A DNA stretch of 64,000 nt from Escherichia coli. Lineage in GTDB: Bacteria; Pseudomonadota; Gammaproteobacteria; Enterobacterales; Enterobacteriaceae. The notes under the pieces are model-generated. The model was not told where the DNA came from. It did no database searches and was given only the letters and a program-made list of their open reading frames with translations. Positions within the stretch are counted from its first letter, which is position 1; every line of letters begins with the position of its first letter. Position numbers and translations under genes: made by a program. The stretch lies in assembly GCF_041248615.1 (NCBI RefSeq), contig NZ_CP158426.1. One strand, written 5' to 3'. Shown here one piece after another: positions 57,960-64,000 of the stretch.

Positions 57960-59099
57960 ATGAGCGCGGGAAGCCCAAAATTCACCGTTCGCCGCATTGC
58001 GGCTTTGTCACTGGTTTCGCTATGGCTGGCAGGCTGTTCTGACACTTCAAATCCACCGGCACCGGTCAGCTCCGTTAATGGCAATGCGCCTGCAAATACC
58101 AATTCTGGTATGTTGATTACGCCGCCGCCGAAAATGGGAACGACGTCTACAGCGCAGCAACCGCAAATTCAGCCGGTACAGCAGCCACAAATTCAGGCTA
58201 CTCAACAACCGCAAATCCAGCCAGTACAGCCAGTAGCTCAGCAGCCGGTACAGATGGAAAACGGACGCATCGTCTACAACCGTCAGTATGGGAACATTCC
58301 GAAAGGCAGTTATAGCGGCAGTACCTATACCGTGAAAAAAGGCGACACACTTTTCTATATCGCCTGGATTACTGGCAACGATTTCCGTGACCTTGCTCAG
58401 CGCAACAATATTCAGGCACCATACGCGCTGAACGTCGGTCAGACCTTACAGGTGGGTAATGCTTCCGGTACGCCAATCACTGGCGGAAATGCCATTACCC
58501 AGGCCGACGCAGCAGAGCAAGGAGTTGTGATCAAGCCTGCACAAAATTCCACCGTTGCTGTTGCGTCGCAACCGACAATTACGTATTCTGAGTCTTCGGG
58601 TGAACAGAGTGCTAACAAAATGTTGCCGAACAACAAGCCAACTGCGACCACGGTCACAGCGCCTGTAACGGTACCAACAGCAAGCACAACCGAGCCGACT
58701 GTCAGCAGTACATCAACCAGTACGCCTATCTCCACCTGGCGCTGGCCGACTGAGGGCAAAGTGATCGAAACCTTTGGCGCTTCTGAGGGGGGCAACAAGG
58801 GGATTGATATCGCAGGCAGCAAAGGACAGGCAATTATCGCGACCGCAGATGGCCGCGTTGTTTATGCCGGTAACGCGCTGCGCGGCTACGGTAATCTGAT
58901 TATCATCAAACATAATGATGATTACCTGAGTGCCTACGCCCATAACGACACAATGCTGGTCCGGGAACAACAAGAAGTGAAGGCGGGGCAAAAAATAGCA
59001 ACCATGGGTAGCACCGGAACCAGTTCAACACGCTTGCATTTTGAAATTCGTTACAAGGGGAAATCCGTAAACCCGCTGCGTTATTTGCCGCAGCGATAA
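57960..59099 (+). CDS. nlpD: Murein hydrolase activator lipoprotein NlpD (LysM plus M23-like)
   Basis: 379-aa ORF with lipobox LAGCS and Q/P-rich repeats. Confidence 0.85.
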
Positions 59100-59161
59100 A
59101 TCGGCGGAACCAGGCTTTTGCTTGAATGTTCCGTCAAGGGATCACGGGTAGGAGCCACCTT

Positions 59162-60154
59162 ATGAGTCAGAATACGCTGAAAGTTCATGATTTAAATGAA
59201 GATGCGGAATTTGATGAGAACGGAGTTGAGGTTTTTGACGAAAAGGCCTTAGTAGAAGAGGAACCCAGTGATAACGATTTGGCCGAAGAGGAACTGTTAT
59301 CGCAGGGAGCCACACAGCGTGTGTTGGACGCGACTCAGCTTTACCTTGGTGAGATTGGTTATTCACCACTGTTAACGGCCGAAGAAGAAGTTTATTTTGC
59401 GCGTCGCGCACTGCGTGGAGATGTTGCCTCCCGCCGCCGGATGATCGAGAGTAACTTGCGTCTGGTGGTAAAAATTGCCCGCCGTTATGGCAATCGTGGT
59501 CTGGCGTTGCTGGACCTGATCGAAGAGGGCAACCTGGGGCTGATCCGCGCGGTAGAGAAGTTTGACCCGGAACGTGGTTTCCGCTTCTCAACATACGCAA
59601 CCTGGTGGATTCGCCAGACGATCGAACGGGCGATTATGAACCAAACCCGTACTATTCGTTTGCCGATTCACATCGTAAAGGAGCTGAACGTTTACCTGCG
59701 AACCGCACGCGAGTTGTCCCATAAACTGGACCACGAACCAAGTGCGGAAGAGATCGCAGAGCAACTGGATAAGCCAGTTGATGACGTCAGCCGTATGCTT
59801 CGTCTTAACGAGCGCATTACCTCGGTAGACACCCCGCTGGGTGGTGATTCCGAAAAAGCGTTGCTGGACATCCTGGCCGATGAAAAAGAGAACGGTCCGG
59901 AAGATACCACGCAAGATGACGATATGAAGCAGAGCATCGTCAAATGGCTGTTCGAGCTGAACGCCAAACAGCGTGAAGTACTGGCACGTCGATTCGGTTT
60001 GCTGGGGTACGAAGCGGCAACACTGGAAGATGTAGGTCGTGAAATTGGCCTCACCCGTGAACGTGTTCGCCAGATTCAGGTTGAAGGCCTGCGCCGTTTG
60101 CGCGAAATCCTGCAAACGCAGGGGCTGAATATCGAAGCGCTGTTCCGCGAGTAA
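59162..60154 (+). CDS. rpoS: RNA polymerase sigma factor RpoS (sigma-38)
   Basis: ORF 59126-60154; start [30 protein letters not shown] at 59162 (330 aa). Confidence 0.95.
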
Positions 60155-60170
60155 GTAAGCATCTGTCAGA

Positions 60171-60206
60171 AAGGCCAGTCTCAAGCGAGGCTGGCCTTTT
60201 TCTTTT
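60171..60206. terminator. Intrinsic terminator after rpoS (also serves convergent MarR-like gene)
   Basis: AGGCCAGTCTC/GAGGCTGGCCT stem followed by TTTTTCTTTTG. Confidence 0.6.
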
Positions 60207-60274
60207 GTTTGGGAAGTCGGTGTGTTTTGTCGCCTGGATAAGACTCGTCAGCGTCCTACCCGGCAATCAGCATC

Positions 60275-60682
60275 CTATTTGCTCATCATCTTGCGCACCA
60301 ACTGCATAAACAGCTCCTTCTCTTCTGCACTCAAACGCCCCAAAAATTCCTCATCCACACTGTCACCAATGGGGATCGCCGCAGCAAGTACCTTTTCTCC
60401 TTCGGCAGTCAGCCAGACAAAGCGACGCCGCTTGTCAGCGGCGTCATGTTCACGTCTGACTAAGCCACGATTTTCCATTCTTGCCAACATTTCTGCCAGC
60501 GTTGCTTTGGTGCTGACTGCTGCTTCTATCAGTGCCACCTGTTCGATACCAGGCTTATCAGCAATGGCGCGCATCACCGCGTACTGTGGTTTGGTGAGGT
60601 TAGGTAACTCGTGCTGCCAGCGAGCCGTGTGCTGCTGAAAAAGCTGTCGTAACTGATGGAACGCTTTATTTCGTAACGCCAT
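60275..60682 (-). CDS. MarR/SlyA-family transcriptional regulator, divergent from the decarboxylase operon
   Basis: ORF 60275-60715; likely start MALRNKAFHQLRQLF; winged-helix MarR-like sequence. Confidence 0.7.
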   Translation of the reverse strand: MALRNKAFHQLRQLFQQHTARWQHELPNLTKPQYAVMRAIADKPGIEQVALIEAAVSTKATLAEMLARMENRGLVRREHDAADKRRRFVWLTAEGEKVLAAAIPIGDSVDEEFLGRLSAEEKELFMQLVRKMMSK

Positions 60683-60828
60683 GTAAACTCCGGGCAAACT
60701 ATCTGCCGCTATCATAGCGGTTTTTCAGTGACGAAGAAGATGTTGTTACTTTTCAGTGCTTGCCGCGATGAAAACAGAGGCGTATTTTAATAATAACGTT
60801 CGTATACGAATAATTAAGAGAATAAACA

Positions 60829-61422
60829 ATGAGACTGATCGTCGGGATGACAGGGGCTACCGGTGCGCCTCTTGGGGTGGCATTACTGCAAGCGCTGCGG
60901 GAGATGCCGAATGTCGAGACTCATCTGGTGATGTCGAAGTGGGCGAAAACCACCATTGAACTGGAAACGCCTTACAGCGCTCGCGATGTTGCTGCCCTCG
61001 CAGACTTCAGTCATAACCCGGCGGATCAGGCGGCGACCATCTCCTCAGGTTCCTTTCGTACCGACGGCATGATCGTTATTCCGTGCAGTATGAAAACGCT
61101 CGCCGGTATCCGTGTCGGTTACGCCGATGGCCTGGTAGGGCGCGCGGCGGACGTCGTGCTCAAAGAAGGCCGCAAACTAGTGCTGGTGCCGCGTGAAATG
61201 CCGCTTAGCACAATCCATCTCGAAAATATGCTCGCACTTTCGCGCATGGGCGTGGCGATGGTGCCGCCGATGCCTGCCTTTTATAACCATCCCGAAACGG
61301 TAGATGACATTGTCCACCACGTGGTAGCCCGCGTGCTGGATCAATTTGGCCTCGAACATCCTCACGCCAGGCGCTGGCAAGGATTGCCGCAGGCCCGGAA
61401 TTTTTCTCAGGAGAATGAATAA
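60829..61422 (+). CDS. ecdB: UbiX/Pad1-family flavin prenyltransferase (EcdB/KpdB-like)
   Basis: 197-aa ORF MRLIVGMTGATGAPLGVALLQAL... Confidence 0.8.
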   Translation: MRLIVGMTGATGAPLGVALLQALREMPNVETHLVMSKWAKTTIELETPYSARDVAALADFSHNPADQAATISSGSFRTDGMIVIPCSMKTLAGIRVGYADGLVGRAADVVLKEGRKLVLVPREMPLSTIHLENMLALSRMGVAMVPPMPAFYNHPETVDDIVHHVVARVLDQFGLEHPHARRWQGLPQARNFSQENE

Positions 61423-62849
61423 TGGCATTTGATGATTTACGCAGCTTTTTACAGGCGCTTGATGACCACGGCCAGTTACTGAAAATCAGCGAAGAGGTGA
61501 ACGCGGAACCGGATCTGGCAGCCGCAGCCAACGCCACCGGGCGTATCGGCGACGGCGCGCCCGCGCTTTGGTTTGATAATATTCGCGGCTTTATCGATGC
61601 CCGCGTGGCAATGAACACCATCGGTTCCTGGCAGAACCACGCGATTTCCCTCGGCCTGCCGCCAAACACCCCGGTTAAAAAACAGATTGATGAGTTTATC
61701 CGCCGCTGGGATAACTTCCCCATTACCCCGGAGCGCCGCGCCAATCCAGCCTGGGCGCAGAACACCGTCGATGGCGACGAGATCAACCTGTTCGATATTC
61801 TGCCGCTGTTTCGTTTAAACGACGGTGATGGCGGTTTCTATCTCGATAAAGCGTGCGTGGTTTCCCGCGATCCGCTCGACCCGGATAACTTCGGCAAGCA
61901 GAACGTCGGCATCTACCGCATGGAAGTGAAGGGCAAACGTAAGCTCGGCCTGCAACCGGTGCCGATGCACGATATCGCTCTGCATCTGCATAAAGCGGAA
62001 GAACGCGGTGAAGATCTGCCGATTGCCATCACCCTGGGTAACGATCCGATCATCACCCTGATGGGCGCCACGCCGCTGAAATACGATCAGTCTGAGTACG
62101 AAATGGCGGGCGCGCTGCGCGAAAGCCCGTACCCGATCGCCACCGCCCCGCTGACCGGTTTTGATGTGCCGTGGGGCTCGGAAGTGATCCTCGAAGGGGT
62201 TATCGAAAGTCGTAAACGTGAGATTGAAGGGCCGTTCGGTGAGTTTACCGGCCACTACTCCGGCGGGCGTAACATGACCGTGGTGCGTATCGATAAAGTC
62301 TCTTACCGTACCAAACCGATTTTCGAATCGCTCTATCTTGGTATGCCGTGGACCGAAATCGACTACCTGATGGGGCCTGCCACCTGCGTGCCGCTGTATC
62401 AGCAACTGAAAGCCGAGTTCCCGGAAGTGCAGGCGGTAAACGCCATGTACACCCACGGCCTGTTGGCGATTATCTCCACCAAAAAACGCTACGGCGGCTT
62501 TGCCCGCGCGGTGGGCCTGCGTGCAATGACCACGCCGCACGGTCTGGGCTACGTGAAGATGGTGATTATGGTCGATGAAGACGTTGATCCGTTCAACCTG
62601 CCGCAGGTGATGTGGGCGCTCTCCTCGAAAGTGAACCCGGCAGGCGACCTGGTGCAGTTGCCAAATATGTCCGTGCTGGAACTCGACCCTGGCTCAAGCC
62701 CGGCGGGGATCACCGACAAGCTGATTATCGACGCCACCACGCCTGTCGCCCCGGACAACCGTGGTCACTACAGCCAGCCGGTGGTGGATTTACCGGAAAC
62801 CAAAGCCTGGGCTGAAAAACTGACCGCTATGCTGGCCGCACGTAAATAA
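61422..62849 (+). CDS. ecdC: UbiD-family reversible hydroxyarylic acid decarboxylase (EcdC/KpdC-like)
   Basis: 475-aa ORF; start overlaps ecdB stop. Confidence 0.8.
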   Translation: MAFDDLRSFLQALDDHGQLLKISEEVNAEPDLAAAANATGRIGDGAPALWFDNIRGFIDARVAMNTIGSWQNHAISLGLPPNTPVKKQIDEFIRRWDNFPITPERRANPAWAQNTVDGDEINLFDILPLFRLNDGDGGFYLDKACVVSRDPLDPDNFGKQNVGIYRMEVKGKRKLGLQPVPMHDIALHLHKAEERGEDLPIAITLGNDPIITLMGATPLKYDQSEYEMAGALRESPYPIATAPLTGFDVPWGSEVILEGVIESRKREIEGPFGEFTGHYSGGRNMTVVRIDKVSYRTKPIFESLYLGMPWTEIDYLMGPATCVPLYQQLKAEFPEVQAVNAMYTHGLLAIISTKKRYGGFARAVGLRAMTTPHGLGYVKMVIMVDEDVDPFNLPQVMWALSSKVNPAGDLVQLPNMSVLELDPGSSPAGITDKLIIDATTPVAPDNRGHYSQPVVDLPETKAWAEKLTAMLAARK

Positions 62850-62859
62850 GGAGAACAAG

Positions 62860-63096
62860 ATGATTTGTCCACGTTGTGCTGATGAACAGATTGAAGTGAT
62901 GGCGAAATCGCCGGTAAAAGATGTCTGGACAGTCTATCAGTGCCAGCATTGCCTCTATACCTGGCGCGATACCGAACCGCTTCGCCGCACCAGCCGCGAA
63001 CATTACCCGGAAGCGTTTCGTATGACGCAGAAAGACATTGATGACGTGCCAATGGTGCCGAGCATTCCGCCGCTGCTGGCGGAAGGTAAGCGTTAA
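62860..63096 (+). CDS. ecdD: Small decarboxylase subunit (EcdD/KpdD-like), Cys-rich
   Basis: 78-aa ORF MICPRCADEQIEVMAKSP..YQCQHCLYTW with two CxxC pairs. Confidence 0.7.
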   Translation: MICPRCADEQIEVMAKSPVKDVWTVYQCQHCLYTWRDTEPLRRTSREHYPEAFRMTQKDIDDVPMVPSIPPLLAEGKR

Positions 63097-63136
63097 TAAA
63101 AAGTGCCGGGTAGTGGCTTTGCTTTACCCGGCCTCA

Positions 63137-63793
63137 TTACTTTATTTTATAAAATGACAGCCGCCCGCTTTTCGGCGATCCGGTATCAATATAAATCTGG
63201 TTTGCGAACGTCTGAATGTTATCAAACATCATATGTCCAAATATAAAATAATCAGCGCCGTTTATTTGTTGTAACTCGCCATTAAGCGATTTCTGCACAC
63301 GATCAACAGGCCAGAGTAATTCTCTCTCCGCTATTTCTTTGCCAAAGAGATATTCACTCCCCGGATAATCTGCATGTGCGATGACATATTTTATTATGTC
63401 GTTAGTGATTTCAATAATATGTGGAAGGTGATGAAATTTCAGCAACAGATCTATTGCTTCTTGTTGTTCCGTCTCATTTAATTCAAAGAACCAGTCGCCG
63501 CCGCTGGCAAGCCACATATTGCCATCGCCGGTCGCGAACGCATCCAACGCCATCGCTTCATGGTTGCCTTTAACCGATGTAAACCAGGGCTGGTTTAGCA
63601 GGTGCAGCACGTTAAGACTCTCCGGCCCACGATCAATATTATCGCCGACAGAAATAAGTAAGTCGGCTTCAGGGCAAAAAGAGAGTTGATGTAAGCGGGA
63701 TTGTAATAATTGATAGTCACCATGAATATCACCAACGGCCCATATATGGCGATAGTGATGGGCATTGATTTTTTGATAGCGTGTAGATGGCAT
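63137..63793 (-). CDS. pphB: Serine/threonine protein phosphatase 2 PphB (PrpB)
   Basis: 218-aa ORF with metallophosphoesterase motifs GDIHGD, GDNIDRG, GNHE. Confidence 0.8.
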   Translation of the reverse strand: MPSTRYQKINAHHYRHIWAVGDIHGDYQLLQSRLHQLSFCPEADLLISVGDNIDRGPESLNVLHLLNQPWFTSVKGNHEAMALDAFATGDGNMWLASGGDWFFELNETEQQEAIDLLLKFHHLPHIIEITNDIIKYVIAHADYPGSEYLFGKEIAERELLWPVDRVQKSLNGELQQINGADYFIFGHMMFDNIQTFANQIYIDTGSPKSGRLSFYKIK

Positions 63794-63898
63794 GGTTTTA
63801 CCCTGTAAAATAAGCTTTCCTATTATACAGGGTATTTTTATTTGATTCGTCAGTTGTCGTTAATATTCCCGATAGCAAAAGACTATCGGGAATTGTTA

Positions 63899-64000
63899 TT
63901 ACACCAGACTCTTCAAGCGATAAATCCATTCCAGCGCCTGACGCGGGGTGAGTGAATCCGGGTCCAGGTTTTCCAGTGCCTCGACCGCAGGCGACGTTTC
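63899..64000 (-). CDS. mutS: DNA mismatch repair protein MutS, C-terminal end only (5' part beyond window)
   Basis: Minus-strand frame ends ...[15 protein letters not shown]; stop at complement 63899-63901. Confidence 0.75.

Follow-up and report, generated by a model that had tools for sequence, protein, structure and literature searches.

Non-oxidative hydroxyarylic acid decarboxylases (HAD) of the VdcBCD type are described in PMC8379154 as systems in which a UbiX enzyme makes prenylated flavin mononucleotide (prFMN), the UbiD-type C subunit is a hexamer that uses prFMN for reversible aromatic decarboxylation, and the zinc-ribbon subunit VdcD binds tightly beside the active site and activates C allosterically. 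According to PMC6424909, this enzyme class turns 4-hydroxybenzoate (4-HBA) into phenol in gut Enterobacteriaceae. In uropathogenic Escherichia coli (UPEC) UMN026, the regulator HosA was reported to repress its own gene and the divergent HAD operon, and to bind a palindrome downstream of the transcription start (Roy and Ranjan 2016, via bioRxiv 10.1101/2024.04.24.590444). From the same study, also cited in PMC6261655, binding of 4-HBA dissociates HosA from DNA, with a several-fold induction of the operon; PMC6261655 puts this Kd at about 4.7 uM, and the relief of DNA binding by 4-HBA is published for HosA of both UMN026 and enteropathogenic E. coli (EPEC). Finally, the mutS-rpoS interval is documented as a polymorphic region in PMC4209514, where slyA/kpdR and kpdBCD are already placed there and the 2.9-kb segment of O157:H7 is traced back to work of 1999-2000. 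Here, we analysed a stretch of 64,000 nucleotides of E. coli DNA (the window, in whose positions all coordinates are given) and studied its variable region at 60155-63136. We are highly confident that this region is a HosA-controlled HAD operon (EcdBCD, of the VdcBCD/KpdBCD type) in the arrangement typical of O157:H7, that is rpoS, hosA, BCD and pphB, without ygbI-N.

This identification is based on the identities and families of the genes, on the presence of the catalytic motif and of the operator, and on the distribution of the cassette. By megablast of 60155-63136 against 5426 complete E. coli genomes, we found that the chromosome NZ_OW967178.1, from a human isolate of Madrid, is 100% identical over the whole region. 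Once placed in window coordinates, its gene calls from the NCBI Prokaryotic Genome Annotation Pipeline (PGAP) agree base-for-base with the four open reading frames (ORFs) of the cassette, and PGAP labels B, C and D as subunits of 'non-oxidative hydroxyarylic acid decarboxylases'. An earlier note on this DNA had placed between rpoS and pphB a MarR/SlyA-like regulator on the minus strand, starting at 60682, and a three-gene operon, separated by a 146-bp divergent intergenic region; this gene map was recovered in full, the regulator start being also that of the PGAP coding sequence. The features of the cassette are as follows:

60275 to 60682, minus strand: hosA, MarR-family regulator (Pfam MarR, identity to 8AGA, PGAP coding sequence)
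60683 to 60828, no strand: divergent intergenic control region between hosA and B, 146 bp, 38% GC
60798 to 60811, no strand: HosA operator GTTCGTATACGAAT, whose core TTCGTATACGAA at 60799-60810 is a perfect palindrome
60829 to 61422, plus strand: subunit B (EcdB/Pad1/VdcB), 197 amino acids, UbiX-type flavin prenyltransferase (NCBIfam VdcB)
61422 to 62849, plus strand: subunit C (EcdC/VdcC), 475 amino acids, prFMN-dependent UbiD-family decarboxylase (NCBIfam VdcC)
62860 to 63096, plus strand: subunit D (EcdD/VdcD), 78 amino acids, zinc-ribbon activator of C (NCBIfam VdcD)

The subunit genes are adjacent and co-oriented on the plus strand in the order B-C-D. B and C overlap by 1 nt, the start of C overlapping the stop of B (TAATG), while C and D are separated by 10 nt and a GGAG Shine-Dalgarno sequence precedes D. 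This overlap and this Shine-Dalgarno sequence point to translational coupling. For hosA, the mechanical ORF begins too early, at 60715, the PGAP start being the Met at 60682. Two long minus-strand ORFs opposite C (61205-61786 and 61815-62540) were rejected as GC-rich antisense artefacts, as no family model supports them and the gene on the other strand is strongly conserved.

The three subunits were compared with family models and with known structures. Subunit B matches Pfam Flavoprotein, which has the UbiX fold (PF02441, 2e-44), scores 312.5 bits with NCBIfam VdcB (NF041206, cut-off 290) and 257 bits with the NCBIfam UbiX subfamily model (cut-off 188), and shares 194 of its 197 residues (98.5%) with the Pad1/UbiX-like protein of E. 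coli O157:H7 crystallised as PDB 1SBZ. Subunit C has the Pfam UbiD_N, UbiD and UbiD_C domains, reaches 788.9 bits with NCBIfam VdcC (NF041204, cut-off 650) and aligns over residues 3-471 with the structure 7AE4 of Sedimentibacter hydroxybenzoicus VdcC (ShVdcC; E = 3.5e-160). It carries R166 and E269-G-P-F-G-E274, the catalytic Glu-Arg-Glu motif, in which E274 aligns with E278 of ShVdcC, the residue named as catalytic glutamate in PMC8379154. Subunit D scores 120 bits with NCBIfam VdcD (NF041205, cut-off 30) and matches the ShdD/VdcD chain 7AE4_a (E = 2e-11) with a 6-residue insertion; its Cys3, Cys6, Cys28 and Cys31 form two CXXC knuckles at the same positions as the four Zn ligands of ShVdcD, which are given as Cys3/6/28/31 in PMC8379154. 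Since all three subunits score above curated NCBIfam cut-offs, these family assignments are far beyond chance, and by sequence B, C and D are subunits of a HAD of the EcdBCD/VdcBCD/KpdBCD type. The earlier note had indeed proposed UbiX-like, UbiD-like and small Cys-rich subunits of the EcdBCD/KpdBCD type, and had named three ORFs falling outside the UbiX/UbiD family as what would overturn the proposal. Pfam and NCBIfam place B and C within these families, the VdcB, VdcC and VdcD models are all passed, and the small subunit has its four Cys.

As B and C belong to the same two protein families as the UbiX and UbiD of ubiquinone synthesis, they could be seen as a spare UbiX/UbiD pair acting on 3-polyprenyl-4-hydroxybenzoate, with no soluble phenolic-acid decarboxylase at the locus. 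Ubiquinone-type names have also long been attached to these proteins (1SBZ is a 'probable aromatic acid decarboxylase', and Pfam uses '3-octaprenyl-4-hydroxybenzoate carboxy-lyase'), and B could in principle supply prFMN to UbiD too. Nonetheless, we regard this function as very improbable. Indeed, C scores 173.5 bits with the ubiquinone UbiD equivalog NF008175, whose cut-off is 788, and thus falls outside this model, and the E. coli UbiD structures match it at 1e-46 only. Moreover, the operon includes a VdcD-type subunit and a 4-HBA-responsive repressor, and 56% of E. coli genomes make ubiquinone without having the cassette.

The substrate itself deserves discussion. Specificities in the UbiD family are described in PMC8379154 as narrow and hard to read from sequence, and the related B and D of Enterobacter/Klebsiella are reported to boost protocatechuate decarboxylase activity in engineered strains (PMC5779730). 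A different phenolic acid could then be the true substrate (for instance protocatechuate, gallate or a dietary or host phenolic, as for AroY/LpdC), with 4-HBA as a side substrate. This is, in our view, an unlikely alternative: C matches the structures of AroY/3,4-dihydroxybenzoate decarboxylase and Fdc1 at about 1e-24 to 1e-27 only, to be compared with 3.5e-160 for VdcC, and it passes the VdcC model; D is of the VdcD type, which according to PMC8379154 has no sequence similarity to LpdD; and the cognate repressor HosA is reported to bind 4-HBA at micromolar affinity (PMC6261655).

As for the regulator, it belongs to the MarR family (Pfam PF01047, 6.9e-12) and 132 of 135 residues (98%) are identical to the crystallised HosA of EPEC (PDB 8AGA and six further entries). 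It differs from the crystallised protein by three substitutions and retains Asp110, a residue reported to contact the ligand of HosA (bioRxiv 10.1101/2024.04.24.590444). The protein that the earlier note had called MarR/SlyA-like is thus, on sequence identity, HosA ('homologue of SlyA').

In the control region, the core TTCGTATACGAA ends 19 bp before the start codon of B. It is identical to the HosA site of the probes used for electrophoretic mobility shift assays and biolayer interferometry in PMC6261655 (supplementary table), and the flanks of these probes match the window at 60776-60832. In PMC6261655, the probe is printed as GTTTCGTATACGAAC and has one T more. Thirteen of the 14 positions of the operator fit a wider palindrome, GTTCGTNNACGAAC, which is conserved in the spacer between regulator and operon from E. 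coli to Rahnella, Erwinia and Vibrio. The outermost base, at 60811, is a T in the window (GTTCGTATACGAAT) and a C in O157:H7, in an E. coli strain with cassette and ygb genes together (pattern IV, see below) and in most other genera, where it completes the palindrome; the common form of the operator in E. coli is GTTCGTATACGAAC. In Enterobacter, Leclercia, Kluyvera, Lelliottia and Pseudenterobacter, a second and weaker operator-like site, GATCGTRTRCGAAC, is found about 56 bp upstream of the main operator; no such site was found in the window or in E. coli at up to 2 mismatches.

Altogether, a working scheme can be proposed in which repression, inducer and catalytic chemistry are taken from published near-identical or homologous proteins. 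Without inducer, a HosA dimer would occupy the palindrome of the operator (60798-60811), a short distance before B, and repress both the BCD operon and hosA. Upon entry into the cell, 4-HBA would bind HosA at the dimer interface and HosA would leave the DNA, after which B, C and D would be co-expressed. As a UbiX-type enzyme, B would prenylate reduced flavin mononucleotide into prFMN. This cofactor would be bound by C, a UbiD-type enzyme and probably a hexamer, whose Glu-Arg-Glu motif would reversibly remove CO2, converting 4-HBA into phenol and related acids such as vanillate into guaiacol; support for such a reversible, oxygen-sensitive reaction comes from the literature on homologues. The four-Cys zinc ribbon of D would bind C beside the active site and be needed for full activity. 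By analogy, we infer that the substrate range of the enzyme in this strain is that of its homologues, with a physiological role in the relief of phenolic-acid stress and in the production of phenol in the gut. The inducer and regulator-promoter experiments suggested in the earlier note are largely published already (Roy and Ranjan 2016, via bioRxiv 10.1101/2024.04.24.590444; cited in PMC6261655).

Some points weigh against this interpretation. First, by its T for C at 60811, the operator of the window departs from that of other E. coli at its outermost base. Second, a scan with the sigma-70 consensus gave a single match on the plus strand (60787-60814), which is weak, not above the expectation from shuffled sequence and not used here as promoter evidence; as the sole consensus match, it would set the operator inside the promoter and not downstream of the transcription start. 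An alternative candidate pair is TTGCCG (60760-60765) with TATTTT (60783-60788), from which transcription would start just before the operator, in agreement with the published position. Third, HosA is reported to affect motility in EPEC (bioRxiv 10.1101/2024.04.24.590444), so that its regulon may be wider than the HAD operon. Finally, the substrate preference is an extrapolation based on the ligand of HosA and on homologues, whose identity is about 60% in S. hydroxybenzoicus and about 97% in Klebsiella/Enterobacter.

We also examined how the cassette is set in the rpoS-mutS interval, whose remaining features in the window are the following:

59162 to 60154, plus strand: rpoS, left flank, 330 amino acids (NCBIfam RpoS equivalog 604 bits, cut-off 394; PGAP coding sequence WP_000081550.1)
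60168 to 60201, plus strand: rpoS intrinsic terminator hairpin, an inverted repeat with a 15-pair stem followed by a T run (terminator scan)
63097 to 63136, no strand: D-pphB junction of the O157-type (pattern I) layout, with a hairpin inside (junction comparison)
63137 to 63793, minus strand: pphB, right flank, PrpB Ser/Thr phosphatase (NCBIfam PRK09968 463 bits, cut-off 332; PGAP)

The gene that follows pphB, just past the end of the window, is mutS, as seen in the PGAP annotation of the identical NZ_OW967178.1. RpoS is the intact 330-aa WP_000081550.1, the same protein as in O157:H7 and ST131, the K-12 derivative HST04 having a different RpoS accession. The mechanical ORFs of rpoS (59126-60154) and nlpD (57960-59099) begin upstream of the annotated starts at 59162, by 12 codons for rpoS, and at 58005, respectively. 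The pphB of the window has 42.6% GC and is 93-97% identical among E. coli strains. A scan of 58900-64000 with Rfam returned nothing besides a sub-threshold match of ctRNA_p42d to the rpoS terminator hairpin (60168-60208; 28.7 bits, gathering score 50), which we judged to be a chance match to a simple stem-loop.

The cassette is carried by 2379 of the 5426 E. coli genomes (about 44%), and is absent from about 3050. The direct D-pphB junction is spanned in 806 of them (pattern I), which leaves about 1570 genomes with the cassette and the ygb genes together (pattern IV). The layouts that we compared correspond to the four patterns published in PMC4209514. In O157:H7 (pattern I), the layout is the same as in the window. 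In the K-12-derived HST04 (pattern II), rpoS is followed by ygbN-ygbM-ygbL-otnK-ltnD, ygbI, pphB and mutS, without the cassette. ST131, of phylogroup B2 (pattern III), has two other genes and then the ygb genes, also without the cassette, and WP4-W18-ESBL-09 (pattern IV) has the cassette and then ygbN-ygbI. In the window, the cassette lies beside rpoS, ygbN-ygbI are absent and D abuts pphB directly, so that the locus types the strain as non-K-12 and non-B2, with an O157-type rpoS-mutS layout.

The earlier note was therefore right in regarding the interval as polymorphic, with strain-specific cassettes, and the strain as non-K-12-like; the finding that would have spoken against it, the same cassette at this position in K-12, was not made, as K-12-derived genomes lack it. 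Its statement that K-12 carries ygbI-ygbN 'instead' stands in part only. K-12 does lack the cassette and has ygbN-ygbI between rpoS and pphB, but the exclusion is too strong: about 1570 genomes hold both, so that cassette and ygb genes vary independently in presence or absence at adjacent sites and do not replace each other.

The edges of the variable segment could be located by comparison. Downstream of rpoS, the match to genomes without the cassette (K-12 derivatives, B strains and ST131) is limited to 46-53 bases, which are the rpoS terminator hairpin; the sequence common to all E. coli thus stops at about 60200-60207, the left edge of the segment. K-12 has only 9 bp (CTGTGCACA) between the rpoS and ygbN terminators, at the point where pattern IV holds the 2.9-kb cassette. 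On the right side, the 33 bp from D to pphB (63104-63136) are shared with O157:H7 and are unlike the D-ygbN and ygbI-pphB spacers of pattern IV and K-12. They contain a hairpin, GCCGGGTA...TACCCGGC, at 63105-63132, which is a putative terminator. The stop codon of pphB is TAA in the window and TAG in K-12 and pattern IV.

Two histories can be considered for this segment, and the earlier note had called it an island. Indeed, the cassette has been claimed to be horizontally acquired (bioRxiv 10.1101/2024.04.24.590444), and a recent import into pathogenic E. coli, for example from Shigella, could be argued from its presence in only 44% of complete genomes, from the GC content of B and C (57-58%, with 51% for the window), from its position in a region known as a recombination hot spot (PMC4209514) and from the mosaic nature of its C-D allele (see below). 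To look beyond E. coli, we searched 100,044 species genomes with the C motif GPFGEFTGHY written as a degenerate DNA pattern, which gave at least 120 loci, and then ran the window proteins by tblastn. Among the matches listed, more than 10 other genera of Enterobacteriaceae have hosA-B-C-D in the rpoS-mutS interval: Citrobacter (C. werkmanii, C. youngae, C. gillenii and two more), Pseudocitrobacter faecalis, Kluyvera, Leclercia, Lelliottia, Enterobacter asburiae and E. quasihormaechei, Phytobacter, Cedecea, Pluralibacter, Pseudenterobacter, Mangrovibacter and Salmonella enterica subsp. arizonae.

In Citrobacter werkmanii and Pseudocitrobacter faecalis, pcm, nlpD, rpoS and the cassette as far as D fall in one collinear blastn alignment. 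The divergence of the cassette genes is within the range of the flanking core genes: for C. werkmanii, DNA identity is 75% for hosA, 82% for B, 87% for C and 88% for D, with 84% for pcm, 83% for nlpD and 91% for rpoS in the flanks. Furthermore, no integrase, insertion sequence element, tRNA or flanking direct repeat was found at the edges of the cassette in the ORF list, the repeat search and the junction comparison, which leaves it without the marks of a mobile island, and K-12 keeps only its 9 bp between two terminators. Since the cluster is syntenic and collinear with its flanks in other genera, the K-12 state looks like a loss, and differential loss is a simpler account of the distribution. 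The simplest reading of these comparisons is that the cassette has long resided between rpoS and mutS and would have been lost by several E. coli lineages, including K-12 and B2. We thus consider a recently acquired island improbable, and the word does not fit a cluster found at the same site in so many genera and devoid of mobility genes.

Variations on the cluster were also seen in these genomes. The whole hosA-BCD is inverted relative to rpoS in S. enterica subsp. arizonae and Phytobacter massiliensis, where D faces rpoS and hosA faces ygbI or mutS. Among the genera compared, no pphB lies between rpoS and mutS in Citrobacter, Pseudocitrobacter faecalis, Phytobacter, Cedecea and Pluralibacter; there, mutS has D (or hosA) as its direct neighbour. 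In several Enterobacterales, among the tblastn matches listed, the cluster is reduced to hosA-C-D without B (Cedecea, a Pluralibacter metagenome-assembled genome, Superficieibacter, Erwinia, Rouxiella and Chimaeribacter). The operon can therefore do without its cofactor-synthesis gene, and the housekeeping UbiX presumably supplies prFMN where B is missing.

Within E. coli, the cassette of the window is not uniform. In the alignment with WP4-W18-ESBL-09, rpoS to B differ at 0-2 positions in each 150 bp, and this figure rises to 4-10 beyond about 61,550, up to where D ends. The hosA-B part is 99.3-99.8% identical to this strain, which has a common E. coli allele, and the breakpoint lies at about 61,400-61,550. 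Identity of at least 99% over C-D is found in only 29 of the 5426 genomes (swine O139:H1 and enterotoxigenic E. coli isolates, MS 69-1 and a few human isolates), C-D being 94-96% identical, or about 4-5% divergent, in nearly all others. Almost all differences between the C-D allele of the window and other E. coli are synonymous, with 3 amino-acid changes in C and 1 in D; between the O157:H7 and WP4 alleles, 54 codons of C differ synonymously and the C protein is the same. For C, comparison of E. coli alleles gives 54-56 synonymous codon differences and 0-3 non-synonymous ones, which implies strong purifying selection; the predominance of synonymous changes over C-D indicates a deep allelic divergence under such selection.

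In Pseudocitrobacter, DNA identity to E. coli is 92-96% for C-D, 80-81% for B and about 70% for hosA. The similarity of C-D across these two genera is unusually high and hints at an exchange of this pair. One of the two Pseudocitrobacter sequences, the metagenome-assembled contig CAJYVI010000165.1 ('uncultured Pseudocitrobacter'), has an E. coli-like pphB next to D and a C protein 100% identical to that of the window. This contig may be chimeric, intergeneric exchange being the alternative. We tentatively raise the possibility, without favouring it, that the operon is a recombination mosaic whose C-D pair may have passed from one genus to another without the regulator or the gene for cofactor synthesis. 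Such a mosaic fits the known hyper-recombinant mutS-rpoS region and is not a new kind of observation.

The system reported here is real but ordinary for E. coli, and as a discovery it is of little weight. Its genes, regulation, inducer, operator and patchy distribution are already known, as are structures of HosA, of B and of CD homologues, and the NCBI pipeline names the genes correctly; the sole mildly new detail is the rare mosaic C-D allele. It is predicted by analogy that the strain can convert 4-HBA, derived from parabens, plant phenolics or tyrosine breakdown, into phenol, which would be relevant to the production of phenol and uraemic toxins in the gut and to phenolic-acid tolerance. 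The comparative data also favour an ancestral segment that was repeatedly lost over a pathogen-specific acquired island, which corrects accounts of hosA including that of bioRxiv 10.1101/2024.04.24.590444, where hosA is said to come from Shigella.

Finally, the locus can be set beside the systems already described. In its organisation, it is the HosA-HAD operon of E. coli (hosA with ecdBCD, also named slyA/kpdR-pad1-yclC-yclD) known from O157:H7, EPEC E2348/69 and UPEC UMN026, with the same genes in the same order, orientation and site. The cassette has 95.8% DNA identity to that of O157:H7 and the same D-pphB junction, and its operator core is identical to the published HosA site. Among patterns I-IV of the mutS-rpoS (o454-nlpD) interval in PMC4209514, the window is of pattern I (O157:H7/EHEC-1), with slyA/hosA and kpdBCD present and o454/ygbN absent, and shows no structural difference from the pattern as described there. 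At the level of the enzyme, the VdcBCD, ShdBCD, BsdBCD and KpdBCD systems (7AE4, PMC8379154) are alike in their B-C-D organisation, their UbiX-made prFMN, the aligned catalytic Glu and the Zn-ribbon D. Compared with the Sedimentibacter enzyme, C of the window is roughly 60% identical while D is much less conserved, and to VdcBCD-type systems the enterobacterial clusters add a divergent HosA-type MarR repressor. The UbiX/UbiD of ubiquinone synthesis and AroY belong to the same two superfamilies and share the prFMN chemistry of B and C, but these systems have no VdcD-type subunit encoded alongside in an arrangement like that of the window.

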